From the IMG/VR virus record IMGVR_UViG_3300022752_000018, positions 32,001 through 96,000 of that record: a stretch of DNA of 64,000 nucleotides. One strand, 5' to 3'. Below the pieces are notes generated by a model. That model saw nothing but the letters and a program-made list of their open reading frames with translations. It did no database searches and was not told where the DNA came from. The stretch is from a virus. A program made the translations under genes and the position numbers. This document shows positions 1 through 64,000 of this stretch, piece after piece (positions within the stretch are counted from its first letter, which is position 1; each line of letters opens with the position of its first letter).

Positions 1-3000
1 TACACCCTGACCACCTTGTACACCTTGTACACCTTGTACACCCTGACCACCTTGTACACCTTGTACGCCCTGTATACCTTGACTGGTCATCTGGTTCCAA
101 TATGTTGAATTAACTATTGGTGGCTGACCAGTAGCTGGTGTTTGCCCAGCAACTGGCGTACCATTTTTATAAATGTAACTGTTACCATCATAAAATACTA
201 AATCGTTTTGATAGTAGGTTGTGCTAGCAGAATATGTGCCTTTCCATACCAAACTAAATCCTTGTACACCCTGTACGCCCTGTACACCCTGTACACCTTG
301 GCCACCTTGTACACCTTGTACACCTTGAACTCCTTGACCACCTTGTACACCTTGTACACCTTGTACACCCTGACCACCTTGTACACCTTGTACACCTTGT
401 ACACCCTGACCACCTTGTACACCTTGTACACCTTGTACACCCTGACCACCTTGTACACCTTGTACACCTTGTACACCTTGTCTACCCTGTACACCCTGTA
501 CACCCTGTACACCCTGACCACCTTGTACACCTTGTACGCCCTGTATACCTTGGCTGGTCATTTGCTCCCAATATGTTGAATTAACTATTGGTGGCTGACC
601 AGTAGCTGGTGTTTGCCCAGCAACTGGCGTACCATTTTTATAGATGTAACTATTACCATCATAAAATACTAAATCGTTTTGACTATAAGTTGTACTGGCA
701 GAATATATACCTTTCCATACTAAACTAAAGCCCTGTACACCTTGTACACCTTGTACACCTTGTACACCTTGTACACCTTGTACACCTTGAACACCTTGAC
801 CACCTTGTACACCCTGTACACCTTGTACGCCTTGTCTACCCTGTACACCCTGTACACCTTGTACACCTTGACCGCCCTGTACACCTTGTACACCTTGTAC
901 ACCCTGACCGCCCTGTACACCCTGTACACCCTGTACACCCTGTATACCTTGAACACTCAATAGGTTCCAATTGGCATTTAAAGGTGGACTTCCTATGGAA
1001 CTAGTATGTGTTACTATACAAATATAGCTTGATCCTTGATAATATACCATATCATTTAATTGATATGGTGTTCCACCAGCCCAAGTTCCTTTCCAAACTA
1101 CTCCAAGACCTTGTACACCTTGTACACCTTGTACACCCTGTACTCCCTGTACACCTTGAACACCCTGTACACCTTGCCTACCTTGTATACCTTGCCAACC
1201 TTGAACTCCTTGAATACCTTGAATACCCTGGGCACCTGTCAATTCCCATCTTTGGAGTGTCGCATCAAGATTAGAACTAGTATGGAATTGTGGTGTATAG
1301 CTACCAACAGAGAAAGTTAACCCAGTTGGAGTACCAGTAGAGTTGGAAATTGATCCACCACCCTTGGTCAAACTCAATGTAGCCGTTGTTGATGTACTAG
1401 CAGTTACATAATACACTGTACCAAGAGTAGCATTTAGAGTACTGTAATTTTGTAAAGACCCTCCTCCTGTATTAGTTCCCTGAACAATTACTGGTAATCC
1501 AACTGATGGAGCAGTAGTTGAATTAAAACTAATACCATTCGAGGTAATTTGAACACCTGTTAAATTATTTGGAATATATTCTGATAAACTTACATATGTG
1601 CTACCAGAGAATATGATCATATCACTAACAGCATAGTTATTAAGTGGTGACCATTCACCTCTCCACTTAAATCCTGATCCTTGTATACCCTGCTGACCTT
1701 GTACGCCCTGTACTCCCTGTACACCCTGTACACCCTGACCACCTTGTACGCCCTGTACACCCTGTATACCTTGGCTGGTCATTTGCTCCCAGTAGGTGGT
1801 ATTAACTATTAAACTTGCACCTACACCAGTTGATGGAGCTTGTCCTGCTGTCGGTGTAACATTTTTAAAGACATAACTATTACCGTTGTAGAATACAATG
1901 TCATTTGTATAATAAGTTGTACCCGCTAACCAAGTACCTTTCCATACCAAACTGAATCCTTGTACACCTTGTACACCCTGTACACCTTGAACGCCTTGAC
2001 CACCCTGTACACCTTGGACACCTTGAACTCCTTGACCACCTTGTACACCTTGTACACCTTGTACGCCCTGTATACCTTGTACGCCCTGTACACCTTGTCT
2101 ACCTTGTACACCTTGTACACCTTGTACACCTTGACCACCTTGTACACCTTGTACACCTTGTACACCCTGTCCGCCTTGTACACCCTGTACTCCCTGTACA
2201 CCCTGTACTCCCTGTACACCTTGAACACCCTGTATACCTTGACTGGTCATTTGATTCCAGTACGCAGTATTAACGACTAAACTTTGACCTATACCAGTTG
2301 ATGGTGCGTTACCAGCACTTGGTATAGCATTATTATAGATGTAACTATTACCATTATAGAATACAATATCATTTTGAGTATAAGTTGTACCTGCTAACCA
2401 AGTACCTTTCCATACCAAACTGAATCCCTGTACACCTTGTACACCTTGTACACCCTGTACACCTTGACCACCTTGTACACCTTGTACACCTTGTACACCT
2501 TGTCCACCTTGTACACCTTGTACACCTTGTACACCTTGTCCACCTTGTACACCCTGTACACCTTGTACACCCTGACCGCCCTGTACACCCTGTACTCCCT
2601 GTACACCCTGTACTCCCTGTACACCTTGAACACCCTGTATACCTTGACTGGTCATTTGATTCCAGTACGTAGTATTAACGACTAAACTTTGACCTATACC
2701 AGTTGATGGTACGTTACCGGCACTTGGTGTAGCATTAGTATAGATGTAACTATTACCATTATAGAATACAATATCATTTTGAGTATAAGTTGTACCTGCT
2801 AACCAAGTACCTTTCCATACCAAACTGAATCCCTGTACACCTTGTACACCTTGTACACCTTGAACGCCTTGACCACCCTGTACACCTTGTACACCTTGAA
2901 CTCCTTGACCACCTTGTACACCTTGTACACCTTGGACGCCTTGTACACCTTGTACACCTTGAACACCCTGTACACCTTGTACACCCTGACCACCTTGTAC

Positions 3001-6000
3001 ACCCTGTACACCTTGAACACCCTGTACACCTTGTACACCTTGAACGCCCTGTATACCTTGACTGGTCATCTGGTTCCAGTACGTAGTATTAACGACTAAA
3101 CTTTGACCTATACCAGTTGATGGTGCGTTACCAGCACTTGGTGTAGCATTAGTATAGATGTAACTATTACCATTATAGAATACAATATCATTTTGAAAAT
3201 AAGTTGTACCTACTAACCAAGTACCTTTCCATACCAAACTGAATCCCTGTACACCTTGTACACCTTGTACACCTTGAACGCCTTGACCACCCTGTACACC
3301 TTGTACACCTTGTACACCTTGACCACCTTGTACACCTTGTACACCTTGTACGCCCTGTATACCTTGTACGCCCTGTACACCTTGTCTACCTTGTACACCT
3401 TGTATACCTTGTACACCTTGACCACCTTGTACACCTTGTACACCTTGTACACCCTGTCCGCCTTGTACACCTTGTACACCTTGTACACCCTGTCCGCCTT
3501 GTACACCTTGTACACCTTGTACACCCTGTCCGCCTTGTACACCTTGTACACCTTGTACACCCTGTCCGCCTTGTACACCTTGTACGCCCTGTACACCTTG
3601 TCTACCCTGAATACCTTGTACGCCTTGTACGCCTTGACCACCTTGTATGCCTTGTATACCTTGTTGTCCAGCTGGCTGAAAGGCTACATTTAATACTGAA
3701 CCATCAGCAGGAGCAGTTCCTTGTGTGTCAATAAATGTACAATTTAGGGTAAAGAATGAATTAGGACTATTATAAGTTATACTATTAATAGTAGCAGCAT
3801 ATCTAGTTACAGATCCATCTGGTTGTAATGTTAGAACACCATGATATGATCCAGCAGTTCCAAATGCTGTCATAGCATTAAAGAATGAATATCTGTCTTG
3901 TCCTAAAATATCATATCTATCTACATATACAACTATTCCACCAGCAGTAGTACTAGTCCAATCTCGATTAATTCGTATAGTACCATTTGCAGGATTGCTT
4001 GTAGTAGTATTATCCCAAGCATAAGTGGCAGTGTATCCACCAGGAGTACCTACAATTCCTTGGACACCTTGAATACCTTGGACACCTTGTCCACCCTGTA
4101 CACCTTGAACTCCTTGGACACCTTGTACACCTTGTATACCCTGTACACCTTGTACACCCTGTCCGCCTTGTACACCTTGTACGCCTTGTACACCTTGACC
4201 ACCTTGTATGCCTTGTACGCCCTGTACACCTTGACCACCTTGTATGCCTTGTACGCCCTGTACACCTTGACCACCTTGTATTCCCTGTATTCCCTGTATA
4301 CCTTGTACACCTTGTACACCTTGTAAGCCTTGGCTAGCAATTAATGACCATGGATTAGTTTTAAATATTAAACCAGTTAATGATCCAGTCCCTATTCCAC
4401 CAATACCTGTTACACTAAACTGTGTTCTTCCTAAAATAAATGAGGTTGTAGGCCCATTATCAGCACTGATAATGTAATATACTACATTAGGTACCGTTTG
4501 GCCTGCTGTAAAATATGTCGGACTTGACTCAGGACTACCAGGATTTTCTAAACTAATACCAGCTGGCACTGTTCCTGATACAATAACTGCCTCGCCTATG
4601 TATAAATTAGTACTTGTACATCCAAATACTCCTGAAGTATTGGTCTTGGTTACATCAGGAATAGTAATAGTTGTACCTGGAGGATTGTTTATATTAAAGT
4701 AAGCCCCTGATCCGTATGTTGAATCACCAAATGTACTTGTGTAGCTTGATCCTTGATAGAATATAGTTTCATTTCTTAAGTAACTTGCTCCAGGTTGCCA
4801 ATCTCCTAAGAATGTAAATCCTTCACCCTTAGTACCCTGGAAGCCTTGTACACCTTGTTGACCTTGAACACCTTGAACACCTTGTACACCTTGACCACCT
4901 TGTACACCCTGTATGCCCTGTATACCCTGTACACCCTGTTGACCTTGTACACCCTGTACACCTTGTACACCTTGTACACCTTGTCCACCTTGTACACCCT
5001 GTACACCCTGTACACCTTGTCCACCTTGAACACCTTGAACACCTTGTACACCTTGTCCACCCTGTATGCCCTGTATACCCTGTACACCCTGTTGACCTTG
5101 TACACCCTGTACACCCTGTACACCCTGTCCACCTTGGACACCCTGTACACCCTGTACACCCTGACCACCCTGTACACCCTGTACACCCTGTAGACCCTGT
5201 ACACCCTGTACACCCTGTACACCCTGTAGACCCTGTAGACCCTGAATACCCTGAATACCCTGACCACCTTGTACGCCCTGTACGCCTTGTATACCTTGGC
5301 TTACTAAAAGATTCCAACTTGCGCCTACTACAGGAACAACTCCTGTGCTATTAGCTATTGCTATCCAAGAACTGCCATTATAAAATACTATATCATTAGT
5401 GCTATATGGTGTGGTACTATTCCAAGTTCCTTTCCAAACTAAGCTAAAACCCTGTACACCTTGAATACCCTGTACACCCTGTACACCTTGTCCACCCTGT
5501 ACTCCCTGTACTCCCTGTACACCTTGGCCACCTTGTACACCTTGAACGCCTTGAACGCCTTGAACGCCTTGAACGCCCTGTACACCTTGTACACCTTGGC
5601 CACCTTGTACACCTTGTACACCCTGTACACCTTGAACGCCCTGTAAACCTTGTACACCCTGTAAACCTTGGCTTACAATCATATTCCAATCTGCGGTTGT
5701 CCCGGGAACAATTCCAGTATGTACAGTAGTTGATATCCAAGAACTACCGTTATAAAATACTACATCATTAACAATGTAAGGCGTTGATAAATTATATGTA
5801 CCTCTCCAAATTAATCCAACACCTTGTATACCTTGACCACCTTGTACACCTTGTACACCTTGTACACCTTGACCACCTTGTACACCTTGTACACCTTGTA
5901 CACCTTGACCACCCTGTATACCCTGTATACCCTGTAGACCCTGACCACCTTGTACACCCTGTACTCCCTGTACACCCTGACCACCTTGGACGCCTTGTAC

Positions 6001-9000
6001 ACCTTGTAGACCTTGTACACCTTGTACACCTTGTCCGCCTTGTACACCTTGTACACCTTGTACACCTTGTCCACCTTGTACACCTTGTACACCTTGTACA
6101 CCCTGTCCGCCTTGAATACCTTGAACGCCTTGTATACCCTGACCGCCTTGGATACCTTGAACGCCTTGGACACCCTGTACACCTTGTACACCCTGTACAC
6201 CCTGTACACCTTGAACACCTTGAACGCCCTGTACACCTTGGACACCCTGTACACCTTGTACACCTTGTACACCTTGTACACCTTGAACGCCTTGGACACC
6301 CTGTACACCTTGTACACCTTGTACACCTTGTACACCTTGAATACCTTGGGATGCAAGCACATCCCAACTAGATGGATTTGTATCAGGCTGATTATTATAA
6401 TTGCCATTAACTTTACTAATATATGATGAACCTAGATAAGCTACAGAATCATTATTATTATAAATTACGCTAGGATCCCATATTCCTTTCCAAGTTACAC
6501 CACCACCTTGAATACCCTGTTGGCCTTGTACGCCTTGTACACCTTGAACGCCCTGTACACCTTGTACACCCTGTACACCCTGTACACCCTGTACGCCTTG
6601 TACACCTTGTACGCCCTGTACACCTTGTACACCCTGTACGCCCTGTACACCCTGTACACCCTGTACACCTTGTACTCCTTGTACGCCCTGTACACCCTGT
6701 ACGCCCTGTACACCCTGTACACCCTGTACACCTTGGACGCCTTGGACTCCTTGTACACCTTGGACACCCTGTACACCTTGAACACCCTGTACACCTTGTA
6801 AACCTTGGCTTGCTATTCTTTCCCAGAAAGTATCATTATTTTCAGGTCCAGGAACTGCTGTAGAATTAGAATTACCAGTTGGAACTCCTCCTCCTGTATA
6901 TCTTACTATCCACGCACTACCATTATAAAATACAACTTCATTTTGATAATAAGTTGTATTAAAATCGTACATTCCACGCCAGATTATACCAAAACCTTGT
7001 ATACCCTGTACACCTTGTACGCCCTGTACGCCTTGTACGCCTTGTACACCTTGTACGCCTTGTACACCTTGTACACCTTGAACGCCTTGAACGCCTTGTA
7101 CACCTTGTACACCTTGAACGCCTTGAACGCCTTGTACACCCTGTACGCCCTGTACACCCTGTACACCTTGTACACCTTGGACTCCTTGGACGCCTTGTAC
7201 ACCTTGTACCCCTTGTACACCTTGGACACCTTGGGCTCCTTGTAGACCTTGAACGCCTTGTAAACCTTGGACTCCTTGTAGACCTTGAACGCCTTGTAAA
7301 CCTTGGACTCCTTGTACACCTTGTACACCCTGTACGCCTTGTACACCCTGTACGCCTTGTACACCTTGTACGCCCTGTACACCCTGTACACCCTGTACAC
7401 CTTGTACACCCTGTACGCCTTGTACACCCTGTACGCCTTGTACGCCCTGTACACCCTGTACACCCTGTACACCCTGTACACCCTGTACACCCTGTACACC
7501 TTGAACACCTTGAACACCCTGTACACCCTGTACGCCTTGTACGCCTTGTACACCCTGTACGCCTTGTACACCCTGTACGCCCTGTACGCCTTGTACACCT
7601 TGGGCTCCTTGTACACCTTGTACACCTTGAACACCCTGTACACCCTGTACACCTTGAACGCCTTGAACGCCTTGAGCTGCTAAAATTTGCCAATAAGTCG
7701 AATTAATTACAGGTGGATTACCATAACTTGGTTCTTCATCACTAAATTGACCATATGGTGGATCAGTAGTAATAGGATATATTACAATATAGCTATTTCC
7801 ATTGTAATATACTACATCATTTTGTTGATAAGTTGCTGATGAACTGTATGTTCCTCTCCATCTTATACCAAATCCTTGAATACCTTGAACACCTTGAACA
7901 CCTTGGACTCCTTGAACGCCTTGTACACCTTGGACTCCTTGTACACCTTGGACTCCTTGTACACCTTGGACACCCTGTACACCCTGTACACCTTGGACTC
8001 CCTGTACACCTTGGACTCCTTGGACTCCTTGTACACCCTGTACACCTTGTACACCTTGTACACCTTGAACGCCTTGTAGGCCCTGTACACCTTGAACGCC
8101 TTGTAGGCCTTGATAGCCTTGGACACCTTGACTTGACAACATGTCCCAATAGGCTGATCCTTCATATGGTTCATTATTAGTATTACTGCCTGCTAATGAA
8201 GCCCAAGAAGATCCATTCCATTTAACCGCATCATTTTGATTATAGGTTACATTTGACTGCCATTCTCCTCGCCAAACAAATCCCAATCCTTGGATACCTT
8301 GTTGACCTTGAACTCCCTGTACACCCTGTACACCCTGTACACCCTGTACACCCTGTACACCCTGGACGCCCTGTACACCCTGGACGCCCTGTACACCTTG
8401 GACACCTTGTACACCTTGTACGCCTTGTACACCTTGTACACCCTGAAGACCTTGAACACCTTGTACACCTTGAACGCCTTGTACACCTTGTACACCTTGT
8501 ACACCTTGTACACCTTGTACACCTTGTACACCTTGTATACCTTGCCAACCTTGGACACCCTGTACACCCTGTACACCCTGTACACCCTGTACACCTTGAA
8601 CGCCTTGGACACCTTGGACACCCTGTACACCCTGTACACCTTGGACTCCCTGTACACCTTGGACACCTTGGACACCTTGGACACCTTGGACACCCTGTAC
8701 ACCCTGTACACCTTGGACTCCTTGGACTCCTTGGACACCTTGGACACCCTGTACACCCTGTACACCTTGGACTCCTTGGACTCCTTGGACTCCTTGTACA
8801 CCCTGTACACCCTGTACACCCTGTACACCCTGTACACCCTGTACACCCTGTACACCCTGTACACCCTGTACACCCTGTACACCCTGTACACCCTGTACAC
8901 CTTGTACGCCTTGTACACCTTGGACACCCTGTACACCTTGTACACCCTGTACACCTTGGACTCCCTGTACGCCTTGTACACCCTGTACGCCTTGTACACC

Positions 9001-12000
9001 TTGAACGCCTTGTACACCTTGAACGCCTTGTACACCTTGAACGCCTTGTACACCCTGACTAGCTAATAATTCCCAATATGTGTCATTATACTCTGGTCCT
9101 GGAACTGTCAATGGATTCTGTGCACCTGGAGTAACACCTTCAACACCAGTGTATTTTACTATCCAACTTGATCCACTGTAGAAAACAACTTCATTTTGAT
9201 AATATCTGGTATTGAAATCATACATTCCACGCCAAATAAGACCGAATCCCTGAATACCCTGTACACCCTGTACACCCTGTACACCCTGTACACCTTGTAC
9301 GCCTTGGACACCCTGTACACCCTGTACACCCTGTACACCTTGGACACCTTGGACTCCTTGGACTCCTTGGACTCCTTGTACACCCTGTACACCCTGTACA
9401 CCCTGTACACCCTGTACACCCTGTACACCCTGTACACCCTGTACACCTTGTACGCCTTGTACACCTTGGACACCCTGTACACCTTGAACGCCTTGGACAC
9501 CTTGAACGCCTTGAACACCCTGTACACCTTGTACACCTTGTACACCTTGTATACCTTGCCAACCTTGGACACCCTGTACACCCTGTACACCTTGTACACC
9601 CTGTACACCCTGTACACCCTGTACACCCTGTACACCCTGTACACCTTGTACACCTTGTACACCTTGGACTCCTTGGACTCCTTGTACTCCTTGTACACCT
9701 TGTATACCTTGCCAACCTTGTACACCCTGTACACCTTGTAGGCCTTGTACACCTTGTACACCTTGTACACCTTGTACACCCTGTACACCTTGTACACCCT
9801 GTACACCTTGTACACCCTGTACACCTTGTACACCCTGTACACCTTGTACACCCTGTACACCTTGTACACCTTGTACACCTTGTACACCTTGTACTCCTTG
9901 TAGTCCCTGTACACCTTGTACTCCCTGTACACCCTGTACACCTTGTACACCTTGTACACCTTGTACACCTTGTACCCCTTGTACACCTTGAATACCTTGT
10001 GCAGCTATTAGATTCCAATATGATTCATTGACAACTATTGGATAACCAGCTTCTGCTTTGCTTAAAACTGGTATTGTTTGTAAGCCACCAAACTTATTAT
10101 TGGTATCACCTGTAATAGCAATAAACGAACTACCATCAAAATGAACTATATCATCAGTAGCGTAAAGTTCACTAGAGCTCCAATCACCTCTCCATACTGG
10201 ACCACGACCTTGAATACCTTGTACACCCTGTACGCCTTGGACACCTTGAACGCCTTGAACGCCTTGGACACCCTGTACTCCTTGTACACCTTGGACTCCT
10301 TGGATTCCTTGGACTCCTTGTAGACCTTGAACGCCTTGGACGCCCTGTACACCTTGAACACCCTGTACACCCTGTACACCTTGAACACCCTGTACACCCT
10401 GTACACCTTGTACACCCTGTACACCCTGTACACCCTGTACACCTTGTACACCCTGTACACCTTGTACGCCCTGTACACCCTGTACACCTTGAACGCCCTG
10501 TACGCCCTGTACACCTTGTACACCTTGTACACCTTGGACGCCCTGTACACCCTGTACACCTTGAACGCCTTGGACGCCCTGTACACCTTGAACACCTTGA
10601 ACACCTTGAACACCTTGAACGCCCTGTACACCCTGTACACCTTGAACGCCTTGAACGCCTTGAACGCCTTGTACTCCTTGGACTCCTTGGACCCCTTGTA
10701 CACCCTGTACACCTTGGACTCCTTGTACACCTTGGACTCCTTGTACTCCTTGTACACCTTGTACACCTTGTACACCTTGTACACCTTGTACACCTTGTAC
10801 ACCTTGTACACCTTGGACACCTTGTACACCCTGTACGCCCTGTACGCCCTGTACGCCCTGTACGCCCTGTACACCTTGTACGCCCTGTACGCCCTGTACA
10901 CCTTGTACGCCCTGTACACCTTGGACTCCTTGGACTCCTTGTACACCCTGTACACCTTGTACACCCTGTACACCCTGTACACCCTGTACACCCTGTACAC
11001 CCTGTACACCCTGTACACCCTGTACACCTTGAACGCCTTGTACACCTTGAACGCCTTGTACACCTTGAACGCCTTGTACACCTTGTACACCCTGTACACC
11101 CTGGACGCCCTGTACACCTTGTACGCCTTGTACACCTTGTACACCCTGTACACCCTGTACACCTTGAGTACCTTGACTGGCTAATCTTTCCCAAAATGTA
11201 TCATTATCTTGTGGACCTGGAATAGTTAATGGATTTTCGGCACCTGGAGTGACACCTTCTACTCCTTTATATTTTACTATCCAACTTGATCCATTGTAGA
11301 AAACAACTTGATTCTGATAATATCTAGTATTGAAATCATACATTCCCATCCAGATAATACCAAATCCCTGTATACCTTGTACACCTTGTACACCTTGTAC
11401 ACCTTGAACACCTTGTACGCCTTGTACACCTTGTACACCTTGTAGGCCTTGTACACCTTGTACACCTTGTACGCCTTGTACGCCTTGTACACCTTGTACA
11501 CCTTGGACACCTTGTACACCTTGTAGGCCTTGTACACCTTGTACGCCTTGTACGCCTTGTACGCCTTGTACGCCTTGTACACCTTGTACACCTTGTACAC
11601 CTTGTACACCTTGTACGCCTTGTACACCTTGAACGCCTTGTACACCTTGTACACCTTGGACGCCTTGAACACCTTGTATACCTTGCCAACCTTGTACACC
11701 TTGAACGCCTTGTACACCTTGTACACCCTGTACACCCTGTACACCTTGAACACCTTGAACGCCTTGTACACCTTGTACACCCTGTACACCTTGGACTCCT
11801 TGTAGACCTTGAACGCCTTGTAAGCCCTGTACACCTTGTACGCCTTGTAGGCCTTGTACACCTTGTACGCCTTGTACACCTTGTAGGCCTTGTAGGCCTT
11901 GTACACCTTGGACACCTTGGACACCTTGGACGCCTTGTACACCTTGAACGCCTTGTACACCTTGAACGCCTTGTACACCTTGTACACCCTGTACTCCTTG

Positions 12001-15000
12001 AACGCCTTGTACACCTTGGACACCTTGGACACCTTGTACACCCTGTACACCTTGTACACCCTGTACACCTTGTACACCTTGTACACCTTGTACACCTTGT
12101 ACACCTTGTACACCCTGTACACCCTGTACGCCTTGTACACCTTGTACACCTTGTACACCCTGTACACCTTGAACGCCTTGTACACCTTGAACACCCTGTA
12201 CACCTTGTACGCCTTGTACACCCTGTACACCCTGTACACCCTGTACACCTTGTACACCTTGTACACCTTGTACACCTTGTACGCCTTGGACACCCTGTAC
12301 ACCTTGTACGCCCTGTACACCTTGGACTCCTTGTACACCTTGGACTCCTTGGACTCCTTGGACTCCTTGTACACCTTGTACACCCTGTACACCCTGTACA
12401 CCCTGTACACCCTGTACTCCTTGAACACCCTGTACGCCCTGTACACCTTGTACGCCTTGTACACCCTGAAGACCTTGAATACCTTGAGCAGTCATTCTAT
12501 TCCAGTAAGTATCATTTACTTGACCTGGAGTGAATTCTGGAACTTGGTTTACAAATTGAGTGCCTTGAACATTATACATGTCAAGAGGATAAACTGCTAT
12601 AAAACTATCACCATCATAATAAACTACATCATTTTGTTGATATATAGTTCCTGGAGAATACTCGCCTCTCCAATTAATACTAAAACCTTGTATACCCTGT
12701 ACACCCTGTACACCCTGTACACCTTGTACACCTTGTACACCTTGTACACCTTGTACGCCCTGTACACCCTGTACACCTTGTACTCCTTGTACTCCTTGTA
12801 CTCCTTGTACGCCCTGTACACCCTGTACGCCCTGTACGCCCTGTACACCTTGGACTCCTTGTAGGCCTTGTACACCTTGGACACCCTGTACGCCTTGGAC
12901 GCCTTGGACACCCTGTACGCCTTGTAAGCCCTGTACACCCTGTACACCTTGTACACCCTGTACACCTTGTACACCCTGTACACCTTGAACGCCTTGGACA
13001 CCTTGGACACCTTGTACACCTTGTACGCCTTGAACACCCTGGACGCCCTGTACACCCTGGACGCCCTGTACACCTTGGACACCTTGTACACCTTGTACGC
13101 CTTGTACACCTTGTACACCCTGAAGACCTTGAACACCTTGTACACCTTGAACGCCTTGTACACCTTGTACACCTTGTACACCTTGTACACCTTGTACACC
13201 TTGTACACCTTGTATACCTTGCCAACCTTGGACACCCTGTACGCCTTGTACACCTTGGACTCCTTGTACGCCCTGTACACCTTGGACTCCTTGTACGCCC
13301 TGTACTCCTTGTACGCCCTGTACACCTTGGACTCCTTGGACTCCTTGTACTCCTTGGACTCCTTGGATACCTTGCCAACCTTGTACACCTTGTACACCTT
13401 GTACACCTTGTACACCTTGTACACCCTGAGCTCCTTGTACACCCTGTACACCTTGTACACCCTGTACACCTTGTACACCTTGTACACCTTGAACGCCTTG
13501 AACACCTTGGACGCCCTGTACACCTTGGACGCCCTGTACACCTTGAACGCCTTGGACACCTTGGACGCCTTGGACACCTTGAACGCCTTGGACACCTTGT
13601 ACGCCTTGTACGCCTTGTACACCTTGGACGCCCTGTACACCCTGTACACCTTGAACGCCTTGTACACCTTGTACACCTTGTACGCCTTGGACACCCTGTA
13701 CACCTTGTACACCCTGTACACCCTGTACACCTTGTACACCTTGTACACCTTGGACACCCTGTACGCCTTGGACACCCTGTACGCCTTGGACACCTTGGAC
13801 ACCTTGGACACCTTGGACACCTTGTACACCTTGTAAACCTTGGATACCTTGACTAGCAATCATAGACCAAACATTTAAATTCAAATCTGGTCTGATACCT
13901 TTATTATTTTCTATAGCAGTATAGGCACTGCCATTATAAAATACAGCATTATTAATAATATAATCAGTTTCTGGATTCCATAACCCTCTCCAAATAAATC
14001 CAACACCCTGAATACCTTGAATACCTTGTACACCCTGTACACCCTGTACACCCTGTACACCCTGTACACCCTGTACACCTTGAACGCCCTGTACACCTTG
14101 GACTCCCTGTACACCTTGTACGCCCTGTACACCCTGTACACCCTGTACACCCTGTACACCCTGTACACCCTGTACACCTTGTACACCTTGTACACCTTGT
14201 ACGCCCTGTACACCTTGTACACCCTGTACACCCTGTACACCCTGTACACCTTGTACACCTTGTACACCTTGTACACCTTGTACGCCCTGTACGCCCTGTA
14301 CACCTTGTACACCTTGTACACCTTGTACACCTTGTACGCCTTGTACACCTTGTACGCCCTGTACACCCTGTACACCCTGTACGCCCTGTACACCCTGTAC
14401 ACCCTGTACGCCCTGTACACCCTGTACACCTTGTACACCCTGTACACCCTGTACACCTTGGACACCTTGTACGCCCTGTACACCTTGGACACCTTGTACG
14501 CCCTGTACACCTTGTACACCCTGTACACCTTGTACTCCTTGTACACCTTGTACACCTTGTAAGCCCTGTACACCCTGTACACCCTGTACACCCTGTACAC
14601 CCTGTACTCCTTGGATACCTTGCCAACCTTGTACACCTTGTACACCTTGTACACCCTGTACACCTTGTACACCTTGTACACCTTGTACACCCTGTACACC
14701 CTGTACACCCTGTACACCCTGTACACCTTGAACGCCTTGAACACCCTGTACACCCTGTACACCCTGAGTACCTTGACTGGCTAATCTCTCCCAAAATGTA
14801 TCATTATCTTGAGGTCCAGGAACTGTCAATGGATTTTCAGCACCAGGAGTAACTCCCTCTACTCCTTTATATTTTACTATCCAACTTGATCCATTATAAA
14901 AAACAACTTCATTTTGATAATATCTAGTATTAAAATCATACATTCCCATCCAGATAATACCAAATCCCTGTATACCCTGAACTCCCTGTACACCTTGGAC

Positions 15001-16530
15001 ACCTTGAACGCCTTGAACGCCTTGAACGCCTTGTACACCCTGTACACCCTGTACACCCTGTACACCTTGTACACCCTGTACACCTTGTACGCCCTGTACG
15101 CCCTGTACACCTTGTACACCTTGAACGCCCTGTACACCTTGGACGCCTTGTACACCTTGTACACCCTGTACACCTTGTACCCCTTGTACACCCTGTACGC
15201 CCTGTACGCCCTGTACACCCTGTACACCTTGTACCCCTTGTACACCTTGTACACCTTGTACACCTTGTACGCCCTGTACACCCTGTACACCCTGTACACC
15301 CTGTACTCCTTGTACACCCTGTACACCCTGTACGCCCTGTACACCCTGTACTCCTTGAACACCCTGTACGCCCTGTACACCTTGTACGCCCTGTACGCCT
15401 TGTACGCCTTGTACGCCTTGTACACCTTGTACACCTTGTACACCCTGTACGCCCTGTACGCCCTGTACACCCTGTACACCCTGTACACCTTGTACACCTT
15501 GTACACCTTGTACACCTTGTACACCTTGTACACCTTGTACACCCTGTAAACCTTGAATACCTTGAGTAGCAACTACATCCCAATATACTCTGTAACCAAT
15601 TCTTGGAACTGTATTAGGATCTATTATACCTGGAGTTATACCTGCTGGATCTTTATATACTGCAATATAACTAGAACCATTATAAAAAATTGCTTCATTT
15701 TGATAATATCTTGTGGTAAAACTATAACTCTCTTTCCAAATAATACCAAAACCCTGAATACCCTGTACGCCTTGTACGCCCTGTACACCCTGTACACCTT
15801 GTACACCCTGTACACCTTGAACACCTTGAACGCCCTGTACACCTTGGACCCCTTGTACACCTTGTACACCTTGGACTCCCTGTACGCCTTGGACTCCCTG
15901 TACTCCTTGGACACCTTGTACGCCTTGTACGCCTTGTACACCCTGTACACCCTGTACACCTTGAACGCCTTGTGCTGTACTTTGTTCCCAATAAGCACTT
16001 CCAAAATACGGACGATTACCACGGTTTATTGGAACTGGACCAACGATACTTACCCAACTTGATCCATTATAGTAGACCATGTCGCCTTTGGAATATTCAT
16101 CAAATTCGTTCCAATATCCTTTCCAAATAATACCACGACCTTGGATACCTTGAGCACCCTGTACACCTTGAAATCCTAAATCACCTTGGATACCTTGACG
16201 ACCCTGTACACCTTGAGGTCCTACTGGTCCAAATCTACCTTGAAAACCTTGAATACCTTGTGGACCTTGAGTGGCCATCAAGTCCCAGTATAAACTTCCA
16301 TCTGCGGGGGGTGGACCACCTTGATTTGGTTTTATAGCGACCCAAATAGATCCATTATAGTAGACTACGTCATTTTCACCATAAGGTTCTGTAAGGCTAT
16401 AGTCACCTTTCCAAATGAAACCTATACCTTGTATACCTTGATTACCTTGGGGTCCTTGACGACCTTGTACACCCTGAGGTCCTATTGGACCTATTGGGCC
16501 AAATGTACCCTGTATACCCTGTGGCCCTTG
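1..16530 (-). repeat. Coding 9-bp tandem repeat (minus-strand CAA/CAG-GGT/GGC-GTA) in ~26 tracts separated by globular modules
   Basis: Direct reading: tacaccttg/tacaccctg/tacgccttg variants. Longest uninterrupted tracts are about 11365-12485 and 12690-13850 (~120-130 triplets each). Confidence 0.97.
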
Positions 16531-16884
16531 TAGACCACCGCCACTGATTACACTTATTCTACCAGTTCTAGGGTTACCGTCACCCCAATAAACATTTAAA
16601 TTCCCAGGATCAATAACCTTAATATATGGGCTTCCTGGTTTACCTAAGTCTACACTTTCATTATTATCATCATAAATCTGTACGGTTACATATTGTACAT
16701 TAAGATTATGTTGTACTGACCAAACTTCAGCTGCTACAGTTTGGTGATATACAAAATTTCCACCTACAAAACTAGCTCCTTGAGCACCCTGCACACCTTG
16801 GCTTCCAGGAGCGCCAATCATTATGGCACGCCAGCCATCTTGGACTCCTTGTACACCTTGGAAATATCGTTTTAAGACGCTCAT
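1..16884 (-). CDS. Giant collagen-like (Gly-X-Gln)n fibre protein with ~24 interspersed CBM5/12-like modules; >=5,628 aa, runs off the window edge (3' truncated); absent from the ORF track
   Basis: ATG at 16884 (first start after an in-frame TAG at 16891-16893) gives [18 protein letters not shown].... The revcomp of the dominant 9-mer tacaccttg is CAA GGT GTA (Q-G-V). All plus-strand YTL shadow ORFs from 208 to 16321 start at positions = 1 mod 3, so one register is kept for 16.9 kb. I translated most non-repetitive spacers by hand (e.g. 80-260, 955-1685, 3660-4830, 5280-5830, 6345-6500, 7675-8300, 10000-10210, 12480-12690, 13800-14010, 15540-16890) and found no stop. The track reports no ORF in this frame, consistent with no stop before the edge. 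Confidence 0.93.
80..16425 (-). repeat. ~24 copies of a 45-65 aa W-x-G-x-W/Y...Y..ND.V.Y.GS(S)Y/W...P....YW module (CBM5/12, ChiA1 ChBD-like)
   Basis: Approximate positions: 80-260, 550-730, 955-1105, 1225-1685, 1780-1960, 2240-2425, 2645-2830, 3060-3245, 4335-4830, 5300-5450, 5670-5825, 6345-6495, 6805-6995, 7675-7875, 8130-8295, 9060-9250, 10000-10205, 11175-11365, 12485-12690, 13850-14005, 14775-14965, 15565-15750, 15975-16135, 16280-16425. The copy at 8130-8295 reads [49 protein letters not shown], which resembles the Bacillus circulans ChiA1 chitin-binding domain pattern (AWQVNTAYTAGQLVTYNGKTY...EPSNVPALW). Confidence 0.7.
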
Positions 16885-17138
16885 TGACTTCTATAATACT
16901 CAGCTAAAAAATATTTTTGAATATAACTTTTTGGCCAATGTAATATAGAAGAACTTAGTTTTAAGATTTGTTTGTATGTTTTATTACAAATGCTATAAAC
17001 AACATAAATTACTGGCTGACAGTAAATAATATTCAGAAAAAGTGTTTTTATTAATTTTACATTCAGGTTCAAAGGCGCTTTTTCATAGTCAAAAACTATG
17101 TTTTTTGCCAATTTAACAAATATTTTAATCAAAATCAT
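16881..17138 (-). CDS. Small hypothetical protein (85 aa), possibly translationally coupled to the giant collagen gene
   Basis: Starts 7 nt after the stop of the 474-aa gene; its TGA overlaps the collagen ATG (ATGA at 16884-16881). The tiling is tight, but the sequence is very AT-rich and has no recognisable motif. Confidence 0.45.
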
Positions 17139-17145
17139 TGCGTCT

Positions 17146-18570
17146 CTAAGCCTGGAAGATATCCACTATATTTATCGCAGCGAACCATTTAATGATTTTA
17201 TCGGAGTCACCTATATTAATTTTGTCTGGGCCTTTAACTAATATCCTAATTACTCCATTAGGTGTGCCAGTAGGTGTACCATCAGTAGTACCAACTTCTG
17301 CTTTTACAGACCAACTATAATTTAAAATAGTAGCTGCGTCTAAATATTGTTCTGCTATACCAGTACCACTGCCTGGTCCTGTGGCGGTAAACACAGTGCC
17401 CACCTCAAAATCCATATTTGGATTAGATGCTATAGATTCCCAAACTGTGTCACCTTTTTGTTTGATTCTATATATCCCCCCAACAGTAAATGATCCTGCA
17501 TTGGTTGTTAAAATAGTAATAGATGTGGTTGATGAACCTGAAACTTTTTCAGTTAATGTATTTCCAATTATTGATGTAGTCGATGCATTTGCTCCTCTGG
17601 TTGCTAAAAATTCTAGATTCCAACTTGCGCTTTCATTTCCGCCTATTAATTTTGAATTTATTTCTACCTTTACTTTATAAGAATGATTATTTTCTAATTC
17701 AAACCGATTAGTATCTATTAAGGTATCTGAACCGTCTAAAGTCAGTTCCTTCCAAGTTCCGTTGGTAGTAGTTGCGCTGACTAATAATGTAGTTTTACCA
17801 AATCCAGTATTAAATTCTGATAATCCATCATCACTTAAATGTTGTGTAAACCTACTACTTTGTACTCGTGCGTAACCATCTAATTGTGGTTTTAAGATTA
17901 CATCACCGGTTATAGGATCGCCTTCCTGGTCTTTATTAATAGCTCTTATGGTGTTATTAAGAAGTTGTAAATTACCAAACTTACCATCAGCTTGATCACT
18001 AAGACCAACAAACCCTATATATCTATAACCTCTAACATATATTTTATCACCTGCACTTAGATCATCAGGTATAACATTTGAGTTATCGCCATTGTCTAAA
18101 TAATTGGTAAAATTAAGTACCCCTGACATATAGTCAAAATAGTAAGCACCTTTGTCATTAATACCAGCATCAAATATCTTTTTTGTACCCGCGCTGGCAG
18201 GATTACCTATAAAAACTTCAATTAAATATCCAGGTCCAAATTCAGGACTAATCCAATTTTCGTACTTTACTTCACTCCCTGATATTGTTGCTTTAGCTAC
18301 GTAAGTAGGATATATATTATTTATAGGAGTAGTTGTGGTATCGGGCACTAATTCCATCGTTCTATATTCAACTACACTCTGTACTATATTTGGTGAAGCC
18401 GGGGCCTTTATAATACTATTTGCTTGAGTCCAAATTTTGTCGCCGCGCAATAGGCTAGGACTAGGAATAGTTTCGTTACTAGCACCTTTTAAAGTATTGA
18501 AATCAGTTTTAGATAGACCAAATAATTTCTTGTACAGTAAATCTACTTTTTGTTTATCAACTACGGCCAT
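17146..18570 (-). CDS. Putative virion structural protein (474 aa); N-terminal ~190 aa paralogous to 42339-43934
   Basis: N-terminus KVDLLYKKLFGLSKTD...SNETIPSPSLLRGDKIW matches KVDLLLKKLVGVAKTD...SNESIPSPSLNRGDTLW; both also share FDY.(S/A)GVLNF. TAATG overlap with the upstream gene. Confidence 0.8.
   Translation of the reverse strand: MAVVDKQKVDLLYKKLFGLSKTDFNTLKGASNETIPSPSLLRGDKIWTQANSIIKAPASPNIVQSVVEYRTMELVPDTTTTPINNIYPTYVAKATISGSEVKYENWISPEFGPGYLIEVFIGNPASAGTKKIFDAGINDKGAYYFDYMSGVLNFTNYLDNGDNSNVIPDDLSAGDKIYVRGYRYIGFVGLSDQADGKFGNLQLLNNTIRAINKDQEGDPITGDVILKPQLDGYARVQSSRFTQHLSDDGLSEFNTGFGKTTLLVSATTTNGTWKELTLDGSDTLIDTNRFELENNHSYKVKVEINSKLIGGNESASWNLEFLATRGANASTTSIIGNTLTEKVSGSSTTSITILTTNAGSFTVGGIYRIKQKGDTVWESIASNPNMDFEVGTVFTATGPGSGTGIAEQYLDAATILNYSWSVKAEVGTTDGTPTGTPNGVIRILVKGPDKINIGDSDKIIKWFAAINIVDIFQA
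17169..17175 (-). promoter_or_regulatory. Possible late-promoter box (ATAAATA) inside the 3' end of the 474-aa gene, upstream of the 85-aa/collagen unit
   Basis: Minus strand reads GATAAATATA. Could be chance because it lies in coding sequence. Confidence 0.3.
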
Positions 18571-20711
18571 TAGTTAGTTGCTCCTGATAAACTTAATGCT
18601 CTAACAATATCACTTGTTGTTAATTTTATTCTTATATACACTTCACTAGTGGCAGTATTACTAGTACTCACTGTTCCAAACGTACATATTCTACTTTGAT
18701 CTACATCTTGACCTAATGTAATTATACCACCTTCACTACATCCATTAGATCTATTTCCGCCTGTTCCTGTACCTGGAACACCGCTACCTCCATACGGTAT
18801 GCTCATGTCTAACCATCCATTGAGACCATTATCGGTAGCTATACCATTTCCTGGAACTGCTACCCAAAGACCATGAATAATTCCGTCAATATTAATTTTG
18901 AACTTACTCACAGAACCTCTAATAAATTTAAAGGTAAAATATTGAGGACCACTCCTTCCGCCAGTATTTAGATTTGGTCCAGGTGGTAAAAAATTTGTAT
19001 AATCTGTAATATCATGCTTTAAAACTGCTTGATTACCTTGTCCTACAACCACAGCATCATAATCTTGTAGCGGACTTGTTTGTGAATTAAAAGCCACTGC
19101 GTTGGCTGAAAAACTTGGGTTATCTCCGCTGCCTGGATTTACTATACGATATCCGTTGGCACTGCCACTACCAAATCCGGCAGCAACTTCTAAATTAGTT
19201 TCATCTATAGTATTTGTATTACTTGTTCCAGTTTTGAATAATACACCGCCACTAGGAGTAAAATTCTGTGTGGTTGTACCATAACTATTATCGGCTGTTA
19301 ATGTGACAGGAGCAGTGCTTCTACCAACACCATTTTTTACAGTAACAGTAGTTGATAAAGATAAACTTGAATTATTTAAATAATTCCTTGGTAACGGTAA
19401 ATCACTAAATGCAGGATTATTAGCTTTAGCTGACGCATAGGTCAATGTCACTGGTGTATTAAAAGCCCCACCACCTGTACCAGTTATAAACTCATTGTAT
19501 GTTGGGTACATATTTTTACTTAATTTTGAAATCTTGAAACTTAGTACAAAAGTAGTAGCACTAGAATAATGTGCGATACCACTACTATAACTTAGTGTAG
19601 GTGTTGATTCTGGTTCAAACAATACATCAGAAAATACAGGAGGTTCAGAAGTACTATTATCATAATACCAATAGGCTACACTTGTTTCACCTACAGTAGC
19701 AGGAACAGTTTCTGGAAAAAGATTATTATGCTTTATTTGAACCTTGTTCCAACCTTCCTGTACATTTCCCTGTCCTCTTGAGTCAAATACTTGCCAAAAC
19801 AGAGGACTGATAGATGGAACTGCTACCAAAGCATAATCTTTATCATCTGTTATAACTAAGTCTCCAACAGTTTCATTGTCCTTACCTAGTAGGTATACTG
19901 GACTTAGGTCGTTTTCACTTTCTTTTAATTCAGGTGTCAATGCTTTACTACCAGCAGCAACACCGTTTTTATAAATTGTAACAGTACCTCTATCTCCTGG
20001 GCCACAATCATTTATAGTACTTGTTTGATAGGATGATGTTCTTAACACTTGATTCACTACTGTACCACCAGCAACACTGTTAGTAATAGCATCACCAGTT
20101 CTATCACTTTGTATAAAGTTACACATTCTATAACTAGAAACACCTAAAATTGTAAAAGGCTGAACATTACCATTTTTTAGTTTAGGAAAATTTGGTGGTG
20201 GTTTTGGTACTAACTTTCCTAAAATAACATTCATTTGTGCTATTCCTCTACTTATTGGTGTGGCAGTAGTCATTGCCACTGCTCTAGTAGCTAATTCACC
20301 CTCATCTGGCTGGCCTATTTTCACACCCATGGCAGAATTAAATTTAACCAATCCTGTGGTTGTTAGGTCTCCCACAGTGGTTAGATTAATATCCTCATTT
20401 GCAAATCTTGCGTTTAACCCGCTGTCTGTTACTTCTAAACGATCTGTATGAAAGGCATCTGCCTGCATTTGTCCTGTAGTCTGAAAATCTCCATTTTGAT
20501 CAATCTGTACAGTGTCACTCCAATAGCGTTTGCCATTCTTATCTGTTAATAATATGCGTTTAACATCAGCACTATCCGTAGTTTCAGGAACGCCTAAATC
20601 TGGTTCGGCTTCACTCAGTTTTAGAAAATCATACCTTTGCTCGCTGACATTTGCGGGCTTGACCTTTTTAACACGGCCGCTAAAAAGTTCAACTCTTTGT
20701 TGTGCTGCCAT
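18570..20711 (-). CDS. Putative virion structural protein (713 aa); paralog of 43943-46804, N-terminus shared with 20858-21868
   Basis: GIAQMNVILGKLVPKPPPNFP vs GVAQLNLTLTLLVPLAPPDFP; C-terminal QYFTFKFIR...LNGWLD vs QYFTFRFVR...LNKWLD. N-terminus MAAQQRVELFSGRVKKV...LKLSEAEPDL. Confidence 0.82.
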   Translation of the reverse strand: MAAQQRVELFSGRVKKVKPANVSEQRYDFLKLSEAEPDLGVPETTDSADVKRILLTDKNGKRYWSDTVQIDQNGDFQTTGQMQADAFHTDRLEVTDSGLNARFANEDINLTTVGDLTTTGLVKFNSAMGVKIGQPDEGELATRAVAMTTATPISRGIAQMNVILGKLVPKPPPNFPKLKNGNVQPFTILGVSSYRMCNFIQSDRTGDAITNSVAGGTVVNQVLRTSSYQTSTINDCGPGDRGTVTIYKNGVAAGSKALTPELKESENDLSPVYLLGKDNETVGDLVITDDKDYALVAVPSISPLFWQVFDSRGQGNVQEGWNKVQIKHNNLFPETVPATVGETSVAYWYYDNSTSEPPVFSDVLFEPESTPTLSYSSGIAHYSSATTFVLSFKISKLSKNMYPTYNEFITGTGGGAFNTPVTLTYASAKANNPAFSDLPLPRNYLNNSSLSLSTTVTVKNGVGRSTAPVTLTADNSYGTTTQNFTPSGGVLFKTGTSNTNTIDETNLEVAAGFGSGSANGYRIVNPGSGDNPSFSANAVAFNSQTSPLQDYDAVVVGQGNQAVLKHDITDYTNFLPPGPNLNTGGRSGPQYFTFKFIRGSVSKFKINIDGIIHGLWVAVPGNGIATDNGLNGWLDMSIPYGGSGVPGTGTGGNRSNGCSEGGIITLGQDVDQSRICTFGTVSTSNTATSEVYIRIKLTTSDIVRALSLSGATN

Positions 20712-43934: not shown

Positions 43935-43942
43935 TTCTTATC

Positions 43943-63998: not shown

Positions 63999-64000
63999 TT

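Follow-up and report, generated by a model that had tools for sequence, protein, structure and literature searches.

Trimeric accessory fibres of the neck or head that are dispensable for the injection machinery are exemplified by the fibritin (wac) whiskers of T4 and by gp12 of SPP1, the former being a coiled coil of 487 amino acids (aa) with a short C-terminal nucleation element and the latter a collagen-like capsid decoration of 64 aa. For the EPclA/EPclB proteins of an E. coli O157:H7 prophage, a trimeric Gly-X-Y triple helix has been demonstrated by circular dichroism and electron microscopy, and the collagen domains of EPclA, which are triple helices by experiment, have lengths fitting 0.29 nm/residue (Ghosh et al. 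2012, PMC3368898). In cyanophage A-1(L), long flexible accessory fibres of a beads-on-chain type are present on the neck, where each consists of ~16 separate trimers (viz. gp82, gp81 and gp80) and measures ~100 nm, with no collagen (PMC10966104). Further, the T4-like Escherichia phage JS10 possesses a 335 aa 'tail fiber protein' (EpJS10_0176), in which collagen, one module and again collagen follow each other, as is also seen in the fibre described here. The present work concerns a very large collagen-like gene in a 64,000-nucleotide (nt) stretch of viral DNA, referred to below as the window, which comprises positions 32,001 to 96,000 of the IMG/VR record IMGVR_UViG_3300022752_000018 (G000:C1:32001-96000 of a single 183,192-bp contig). 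The protein encoded by this gene, in which long tracts of Gly-Val-Gln triplets alternate with small domains resembling carbohydrate-binding modules (CBMs) of the CBM5/CBM12 type, represents an extreme form of a type of phage fibre that has been seen before but not characterised.

The gene, its orthologues and its genomic setting

The open reading frame (ORF) of the fibre gene begins on the minus strand with an ATG at window position 16884 and is open down to base 1, and its 5,628 codons (aa 1-5,628, 1..16884) bear out the original prediction of a giant collagen-like gene lacking a stop in the window. When the frame is followed leftwards on the contig, as had been proposed for locating the stop and the C-terminus, it continues to G000:C1:30141 and closes 1,859 nt outside the window, and the full gene (G000:C1:30141-48884(-)) codes for a protein of 6,247 aa (~622 kDa) with a 26-aa non-collagen tail at its C-terminus. 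The probability that 6,247 stop-free codons occur by chance is ~10^-183 based on base composition. The window contains 1,276 Gly-X-Y triplets (3,828 aa, 11,484 nt) in 27 runs, in close agreement with the ~1,260 triplets and 11.4 kb estimated earlier. The residue at X, which was expected to be mostly Val, is Val in 1,043 of these triplets (82%), that at Y, predicted to be almost always Gln, is Gln in 1,240 (97%), and the sequence is as poor in Pro as had been claimed, with only 10 of the 2,552 X and Y positions (0.4%) occupied by this residue. In the full protein there are 1,438 such triplets (4,314 aa) in 29 unbroken runs of 5-130 triplets, and 25 of these 4,314 residues (0.6%) are charged, although the exact triplet counts could be slightly off in the most uniform tracts. 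The Pfam Collagen family (PF01391, cut-off 27.2 bits) matches the C-terminal 285 aa with 127 bits and a part near the N-terminus with 29.9 bits, and Gly is found at every third residue throughout the long uninterrupted runs. The GC content of the gene, 46.7% versus 35.7% in the remainder of the contig, is raised because of its codon content.

A metagenome scan in which the N-terminal 116 aa served as the query identified four orthologous contigs, viz. L089, L090, L091 and L092, whose ORFs all run off the contigs after at least 756, 335, 3,006 and 1,779 aa, respectively. The similarity over aa 1-116 amounts to 53-67% identity (tblastn), and to 40-60% for the N-terminal domain alone. All four orthologues possess a near-identical leader, after which the collagen runs begin with 5, 13 and 15 triplets as in the fibre, and their collagen is of the GVQ/GIQ type, with Gln at Y in 86-98% of the triplets and runs of up to 175 triplets. 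In the three long orthologue fragments Pro makes up at most 1.5%, and the module types of the orthologues are colinear with those in the window. The contig L091 is also syntenic, as the end of the other giant gene (see below) is followed in it by genes for proteins of 326, 701 and 466 aa and then by the fibre gene, and these neighbouring proteins are 60-68% identical to those in the window. The type-B modules are 71-85% identical to their counterparts in L091, which is above the value for the neighbouring proteins, and the conservation of module loops between orthologues indicates that some constraint, be it packing or a ligand, acts on the modules. Between modules 4 and 7 there are 16 synonymous and 2 amino-acid differences, and this synonymous excess points to purifying selection on the modules. 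The modules differ in age, from recent copies such as modules 17, 18 and 19, with 96-97.5% DNA identity, to old ones. At the nucleotide level, no fewer than 16 different 9-mers encode GVQ, the longest exact stretch with a period of 9 is 107 nt, the longest exact repeat in the gene is 209 nt, all 251-mers are unique and 40% of the 31-mers are non-unique. Based on these observations it is clear that the fibre gene is real and conserved. In isolate phages, a tblastn search with aa 1-310 detected nothing and one with aa 4015-4620 a single marginal match, while in IMG/VR no orthologue of the N-terminus was found but collagen matches only, and the IMG/VR relatives of the 474-aa neighbour have no giant gene downstream. 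As a separate observation, short-read assemblies systematically truncate genes of this kind, which are thus under-counted in protein databases.

The contig belongs to an uncultured jumbo myophage of the T4 superfamily (T4/Rak2-type). Since no overlap exists between its ends, the 183-kb contig probably represents an incomplete genome. Upstream of the fibre gene, on the same strand, lie the genes for the portal, the prohead protease and the major head protein, the last of which is 65-71% identical to those of Sinorhizobium phage Phosso, Vibrio phage 2.275.O, PA5oct and the GAP32/CBB group. In the order of transcription, the head genes are followed by a pair of genes for a 953-aa phrog_8578 and a 531-aa phrog_9417 protein and by a gene for a giant protein of 6,653 aa, after which come a second such pair (713-aa phrog_8578 and 474-aa phrog_9417), an 85-aa ORF and the fibre gene. 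The fibre gene is in turn followed by a gene for an 840-aa tail-fibre-like protein and by DUF4422, TPR and GT2 genes, and farther on come the genes for the neck, sheath and tube, some of them on the opposite strand. The genes for the baseplate and the classical fibres are grouped apart from these, in a block on the plus strand. The location of the fibre gene within this structural gene block, together with its matches to PHROG tail-fibre/tail families (5073, 819 and 6320; E 3e-28 to 7e-22, largely over collagen), marks its product as a putative virion fibre.

The proposed fibre and the alternative explanations

In the reading that we favour with moderate confidence, the protein is a structural fibre of this T4/Rak2-type jumbo phage and serves for adhesion. 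According to this model, three chains would combine into a segmented collagen-type triple helix with 29 segments of 4-112 nm and a total length of ~1.2 µm, and each of the 26 interruptions would form a trimeric knob of three CBM5/12-fold domains. The collagen part would be ~1.23 µm long at 0.286 nm/residue (~1.1 µm for the part in the window), which is arithmetic that holds only if this part is triple-helical. In the proximal half, where the repeat is nearly pure (GVQ)n, the spacings would be 57-112 nm, while the collagen runs of the distal third are shorter and many have the period (GVQ)3-GGQ. At the proximal end, docking onto the virion may be the task of the leader, the 78-aa beta-type domain and the initial collagen runs. 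The spacing of 5, 13 and 15 triplets in these runs is fixed throughout the orthologues, which suggests that the fibre docks with a precise geometry. At the distal end, the final ~100 collagen residues change to a mixed GFQ/GTx/charged composition before the 26-aa tail, and this end may nucleate trimerisation and may also carry the co-transcribed 840-aa tail-fibre-like protein. We lean towards a fibre borne on the head or neck, i.e. a 'whisker' or 'hair', over a baseplate fibre, because its gene lies between the head and the neck genes and the baseplate block has an 894-aa fibre of its own. Such a very long flexible line would serve for long-range reversible adhesion with a larger capture radius. 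The knobs would primarily be folding and registration clamps, which keep the three repetitive chains in register and also act as hinges, and they may possibly make weak multivalent surface or glycan contacts as well.

Several points weigh against this model. The 78-aa N-terminal domain matches uncharacterised phage families only, a word-indexed search for characterised homologues yielded nothing and the ESM Atlas unnamed viral clusters only, and the AlphaFold2 (AF2) model made for it without an alignment (predicted local distance difference test score, pLDDT, 48) is too poor to use. No paralogue of this domain was found elsewhere in this genome. The attachment site is thus a guess from gene order. 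In phiCbK-like siphophages, phrog_8578 and phrog_9417 are encoded upstream of the tape-measure region and are labelled 'tail protein', and due to this label a tail location fits as well as a head location. In Phosso, the gene order around the major head gene differs and the synteny is not conserved. Further, the collagen of the fibre lacks every known stabiliser, as the imino acids, charge pairs or Thr that stabilise bacterial and viral collagens are nearly absent (Pro at 0.4% of X/Y, charged residues 0.6%), whereas viral collagens have ~22% Pro and ~35% acidic residues at X and ~38% basic residues at Y (Table 4, PMC3368898). A trimer prediction for three copies of aa 5217-5360 gave a score of 0.30 against a mark of 0.32, which speaks neither for nor against trimerisation.

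An important question concerns the knobs, which the original prediction had regarded as ~24 chitin-binding-like modules. Of the 25 non-collagen interruptions beyond the N-terminal domain in the window, 24 are indeed CBM-like, and the full protein has 26 modules for which the CBM5/12 fold is indicated by a sequence profile and an AF2 model. The modules are 49-68 aa long, except for modules 16 and 21 with their inserts of ~100 aa, and they share the motif W-x-G-x-W/Y ... Y-x-x-N/D-D-x-V-x-Y-N-G-S-S-Y ... P ... W-x-x-L-x-S-Q. A profile built from 22 modules matches the chitin-binding domain (ChBD) of ChiA1 (1ED7, E 7e-4) and the CBMs of a Vibrio chitin deacetylase (1e-3), and also the Pyrococcus ChBD, the short tail fibre of cyanophage A-1(L) and an Anabaena contractile-injection baseplate protein. 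The AF2 model of module 22 has a pLDDT of 85.8, and all its top Foldseek matches are CBM5/12 domains or phage fibre/baseplate proteins. Its Z score is 7.3 with the CBM5 of ChiC (root-mean-square deviation, rmsd, 1.7 Å) and 6.5-6.8 with ChiB, with an rmsd of 1.7-1.9 Å across these two proteins, and the best structural match is with residues 133-188 of A-1(L) gp33 (Z 7.8 over 55 residues). The predicted fold is therefore soundly assigned to CBM5/12. However, the comparison with the Pfam profile that had been suggested earlier gave a divided result, as just one of ten segments exceeds the cut-off of PF02839 (CBM_5_12; 36.5 versus 26.2 bits), while seven lie below it (14.2-24.5 bits) and two show no match.

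If the knobs were true carbohydrate-binding beads, then the fibre would mainly act as a tether or net that makes multivalent contacts with chitin, exopolysaccharide or the glycans of biofilms. Besides the fold and the sequence match, this explanation draws on the 26 x 3 copies of the module per fibre, on the several module types with long loops conserved in orthologues, which would suit several ligands, and on phage records in which some related proteins are labelled carbohydrate-binding or lectin-like. However, in the HMMER alignment the 'GWEP' of ChiA1 aligns to 'GNEP' in the module consensus, and Trp is found in that column in 0 of 22 modules, although the Trp concerned (Trp687 of the ChiA1 ChBD) is what we take to be the key chitin-binding residue. 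The sugar-stacking aromatic is thus missing at this position, other aromatic residues of the module could substitute for it, and the loop there is the most length-variable one, ranging from ~10 to 33 residues across modules. Most of the modules, as noted above, fall under the Pfam cut-off. In addition, the gp33 domain of A-1(L) that is the best structural match is a 'joint' contacting the baseplate wedges, apart from the receptor-binding part, and the distal CBM of the neck fibre of this phage failed to bind host cells (PMC10966104). Hence, a CBM-like fold in a phage fibre, which is here a predicted fold only, should not be interpreted as proof of sugar binding by itself, and we consider it unlikely, while deserving serious attention, that binding of carbohydrates is the main role of the knobs.

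It is also rather unlikely, in our estimation, that the protein is a long tail fibre attached to the baseplate, with the 840-aa protein as its receptor-binding tip and primary host recognition as its role. The matches to PHROG tail-fibre families would agree with such an arrangement, but these come mostly from the collagen repeat. The tail-fibre-like phrog_38058 gene for the 840-aa protein, which begins 14 nt past the fibre stop, and the annotation of the phrog_9417 partner as 'tail protein' in Caulobacter phages are likewise in its favour. However, the baseplate and classical fibres, inclusive of the 894-aa collagen-plus-module fibre, are encoded in a block on the other strand, the small counterpart in JS10 is found among head genes beside Hoc-like genes, and a length of ~1.2 µm seems ill suited to positioning a contractile tail.

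We regard as improbable the explanation that (GVQ)n forms no triple helix and is instead a linker, disordered or elastic, or a Gln/Val polymer rich in beta structure, in which case the fibre would be a compact 'fuzzy' coat or an entropic tether. Pro and charge pairs are absent, and Gln/Val-rich repeats are able to take other structures. However, Gly occupies strictly every third position in runs of up to 130-175 triplets with zero breaks of register, and in the diverged orthologues X remains beta-branched aliphatic and Y remains Gln, and such a constraint would be imposed by a triple helix but not by a disordered linker. In the host-guest peptides of Persikov et al. 2000, moreover, Gln is said to be among the better non-imino residues at Y. 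Related Pro-poor Gly-X-Gln tracts are present in many metagenomic fibre proteins, which often end in the trimer-specific Peptidase_S74 chaperone domain; the largest collagen of this type that was retrieved has ~320 triplets and none is GVQ-homopolymeric. The triple helix and the trimeric state of the fibre are predicted features. Lastly, it is most improbable that the gene is an artefact of the assembly, which is now largely excluded, or a runaway repeat that is decaying and has no function, for although the 9-nt units are highly repetitive and all four orthologous contigs break inside a gene with which assemblers struggle, the frame stays open for 18.7 kb with no exact repeat above 209 nt, four independent assemblies (one of them syntenic) share the same architecture, and non-synonymous changes in the modules are greatly outnumbered by synonymous ones.

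The fibre model also has a bolder form, viz. that an uncultured clade of jumbo phages bears single-polypeptide fibres of >1 µm, ~ten times the particle length, built on a (Gly-Val-Gln)n helix free of Pro and charge, and this we hold to be possible but doubtful. If true, it would mean a collagen stabilised by an undescribed means, with Gln and Val only and with trimeric CBM-fold knob clamps every 4-112 nm, and the fibres would be 'fishing lines' that enlarge the capture radius or tether the phage to particles or biofilms. If assembled as its sequence suggests, the fibre would rank with the longest appendages of tailed phages known so far and would be a natural collagen needing neither proline, hydroxyproline nor charge pairs. 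It would then bear both on the stabilisation of triple helices and on host finding by large aquatic phages. Protein engineers could find in it a collagen scaffold of non-animal origin that is simple, highly repetitive and already fitted with registration knobs.

Features along the chain and in the neighbouring region

From the N-terminus, the chain consists of a 23-aa leader, a 5-triplet run, the 78-aa beta-type domain, a 13-triplet run and then modules that alternate with collagen, all features within the gene being on the minus strand. The leader (16816..16884) is nearly invariant in the four metagenomic orthologues, and collagen run 1 (16771..16815, 5 triplets) has the same length in all of them. 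The 78-aa domain (16537..16770) is the presumed virion anchor, and it is followed by collagen run 2 (16420..16536), in which the 13 triplets contain several Pro and the length is kept in orthologues. The CBM5/12-like modules 1 (aa 156-206, 16267..16419) and 2 (aa 252-305, 15970..16131) precede the nearly pure (Gly-Val-Gln)n zone (aa 306-3462, 6499..15969), in which runs of 25-130 triplets lie between modules 3-13. The modules of this zone are 3 (aa 381-441, 15562..15744), 4 (aa 643-704, 14773..14958), 5 (aa 963-1012, 13849..13998), 6 (aa 1403-1467, 12484..12678), 7 (aa 1843-1904, 11173..11358), 8 (aa 2229-2296, 9997..10200), 9 (aa 2549-2610, 9055..9240), 10 (aa 2869-2919, 8128..8280), 11 (aa 3007-3071, 7672..7866) and 12 (aa 3300-3360, 6805..6987), with module 13 (aa 3463-3513, 6346..6498) at its end. 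Modules 4, 7, 9 and 12 are of type B, and module 4, which has a long GVEGVTPG...VPGP loop, is 82% identical to its counterpart in L091.

In the distal zone (aa 3514-5628, 1..6345), runs of 8-59 triplets separate modules 14-24 and an odd domain of 121 aa. Here the modules are 14 (aa 3691-3739, 5668..5814), 15 (aa 3815-3863, 5296..5442), 16 (aa 4023-4185, 4330..4818; CBM-like with an insert of ~110 aa), 17 (aa 4550-4609, 3058..3237), 18 (aa 4688-4747, 2644..2823) and 19 (aa 4823-4882, 2239..2418), the last three forming the recently amplified set, followed by 20 (aa 4979-5038, 1771..1950), 21 (aa 5072-5216, 1237..1671; CBM-like with an insert of ~95 aa), 22 (aa 5262-5312, 949..1101; the one with 36.5 bits to Pfam CBM_5_12, whose sequence was modelled by AF2), 23 (aa 5388-5445, 550..723) and 24 (aa 5545-5602, 79..252). 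The 121-aa domain (aa 4285-4405, 3670..4032) is not of the CBM type; for it and for the two module inserts no Pfam family was found, and the look-alikes are uncharacterised, unnamed viral proteins only. Similarities to the 840-aa neighbour (E 0.019) and of one insert to the other (E 0.007) are too weak to use.

The fibre gene also contains, at window 4800-16100, ~28 ORFs of 150-411 aa in its other frames and on the plus strand, and these are shadows of the 9-nt repeat and not real genes. Only three transfer RNA (tRNA) genes are present on the contig (Arg-TCT, Leu-TAA and Met-CAT), none of which serves Gly, Val or Gln, and the fibre protein alone requires ~4,500 residues of these three amino acids. 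The non-collagen parts of the fibre possess 47 N-x-S/T sequons, inclusive of the conserved Y-N-G-S. The stretch L083 10773-16126 (= G000:C1:24773-30126), just outside the window on its left, encodes the 840-aa tail-fibre-like protein, then the DUF4422 product, which is glycosyltransferase-like, the TPR protein and the GT2 glycosyltransferase, and with glycosyltransferase-like genes nearby and these sequons a glycosylation of the virion is conceivable.

Directly upstream of the fibre gene, the stop of the 85-aa ORF (16881..17138, minus strand), which has no family match, overlaps the fibre ATG (ATGA), so that the two are translationally coupled. Next to it are the gene for the 474-aa protein (17146..18570, minus strand), which has an N-terminal phrog_9417 domain, is conserved beside the fibre gene (60% identity in L091) and is a candidate adaptor or partner of the fibre, and that for the 713-aa phrog_8578 protein (18570..20711, minus strand), which is conserved in the cassette (68% identity in L091). 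Searches of PDB sequences with these two neighbours revealed nothing useful. The cassette of a phrog_8578 protein and a protein with an N-terminal phrog_9417 domain is duplicated, with one copy before each giant gene (42339-46804 and 17146-20711, minus strand). The same adjacent pair also occurs in phiCbK-like Caulobacter phages (CcrBL9 gp133/gp134), in Brevundimonas jumbo phages and in Agrobacterium, Salicola and Sinorhizobium phages, and the cassette may be an adaptor for giant fibres. The second giant gene (window 22312-42273, minus strand) encodes a 6,653-aa protein with no collagen that is rich in Ala, Thr, Val and Leu, whose N-terminus is of the phage-fibre type and whose C-terminal 550 aa are 62% identical in L091. 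Elsewhere on the contig, the baseplate/tail-fibre block includes, directly after a 4,418-aa gene, the 894-aa collagen(GIQ)-plus-CBM-like fibre (G000:C1:126366-129050, plus strand), whose collagen is similar to that in the distal part of the giant fibre (E 3e-30). Upstream of the portal gene, the region from window 57531-64000 (minus strand) on to G000:C1:96133 encodes a 2,200-aa protein rich in Glu, Lys and Ala, which may be an internal head protein or one of the tape-measure type.

Comparison with other phage fibres

The original prediction had considered both the length of the fibre and its beads-on-a-string design to be exceptional. The first part of this assessment holds, as the length and the GVQ composition do stand out, whereas the combination of collagen with the module is ordinary in phage fibres. 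At E <= 1e-3 the module profile detects 11,238 representative proteins, in many of which the module is repeated 5-44 times, and among isolate phages 227 records contain it. Of the 150 highest-ranking proteins, roughly one third alternate it with collagen, but these have at most ~1,700 aa, runs of no more than ~45 triplets and 10-30% Pro at X/Y, and the fibre has 4-5 times more triplets than any protein retrieved. The module fold is also seen in many phage 'collagen triple helix repeat' proteins in BFVD (E 1e-5 to 1e-4). A design of collagen rods and CBM knobs is thus routine. In the literature, no description was found of giant or Gln-rich Pro-free phage collagens, or of phage fibres combining collagen with chitin binding.

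The JS10 protein is related to the fibre (E 1e-22, 37% identity over 166 aa), and its gene, which comes after gp23/gp24 and beside Hoc-like head-decoration genes, is likewise downstream of the major head gene. The shared unit, viz. W-x-G-x-W...Y-N-G-S-Y...W between collagen, is also found in IME08, in minor tail proteins of Streptomyces phages and in collagen proteins of uncultured Caudovirales. However, collagen proteins of the JS10 type are ~250-1,700 aa long, with 1-12 modules, runs of up to ~45 triplets and, in the multi-module metagenomic set, mixed X/Y residues, whereas the fibre has 6,247 aa, 26 modules, runs of up to 130 triplets of almost pure GVQ and a different N-terminal domain. 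With the CBM5/CBM12 domains (1ED7; S. griseus ChiC, 1WVU/2D49; S. marcescens ChiB; Vibrio, 4NZ1), the modules share the same predicted beta fold (Z 6.2-7.3, rmsd 1.7-2.4 Å over 46-48 residues) and the core motif W...Y..[GN]D.V.Y.G..Y...W, but those domains are joined to enzymes, while the modules of the fibre sit within a collagen chain and are non-aromatic at the ChiA1 Trp position. In BFVD, the same module fold is also seen in collagen-like proteins of giant viruses (Megavirus and Tupanvirus); these are, however, capsid fibrils of eukaryotic viruses with ~480-770 aa, whereas the present genome is that of a tailed phage. The resemblance to fibritin would be in function only, as the shaft of the fibre is Gly-X-Y with no heptads, and a coiled coil and foldon are lacking; the 26-aa tail of the fibre is found at the same end as the short nucleation element of fibritin. 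The collagen domain of EPclA/EPclB, with its 111 residues, 48% Pro at X and many charge pairs, has no CBM-like nodes (PMC3368898). In comparison with the neck fibre of A-1(L), which is likewise long, flexible and beaded but is put together from separate trimers, a single polypeptide of the fibre would span ~1.2 µm.

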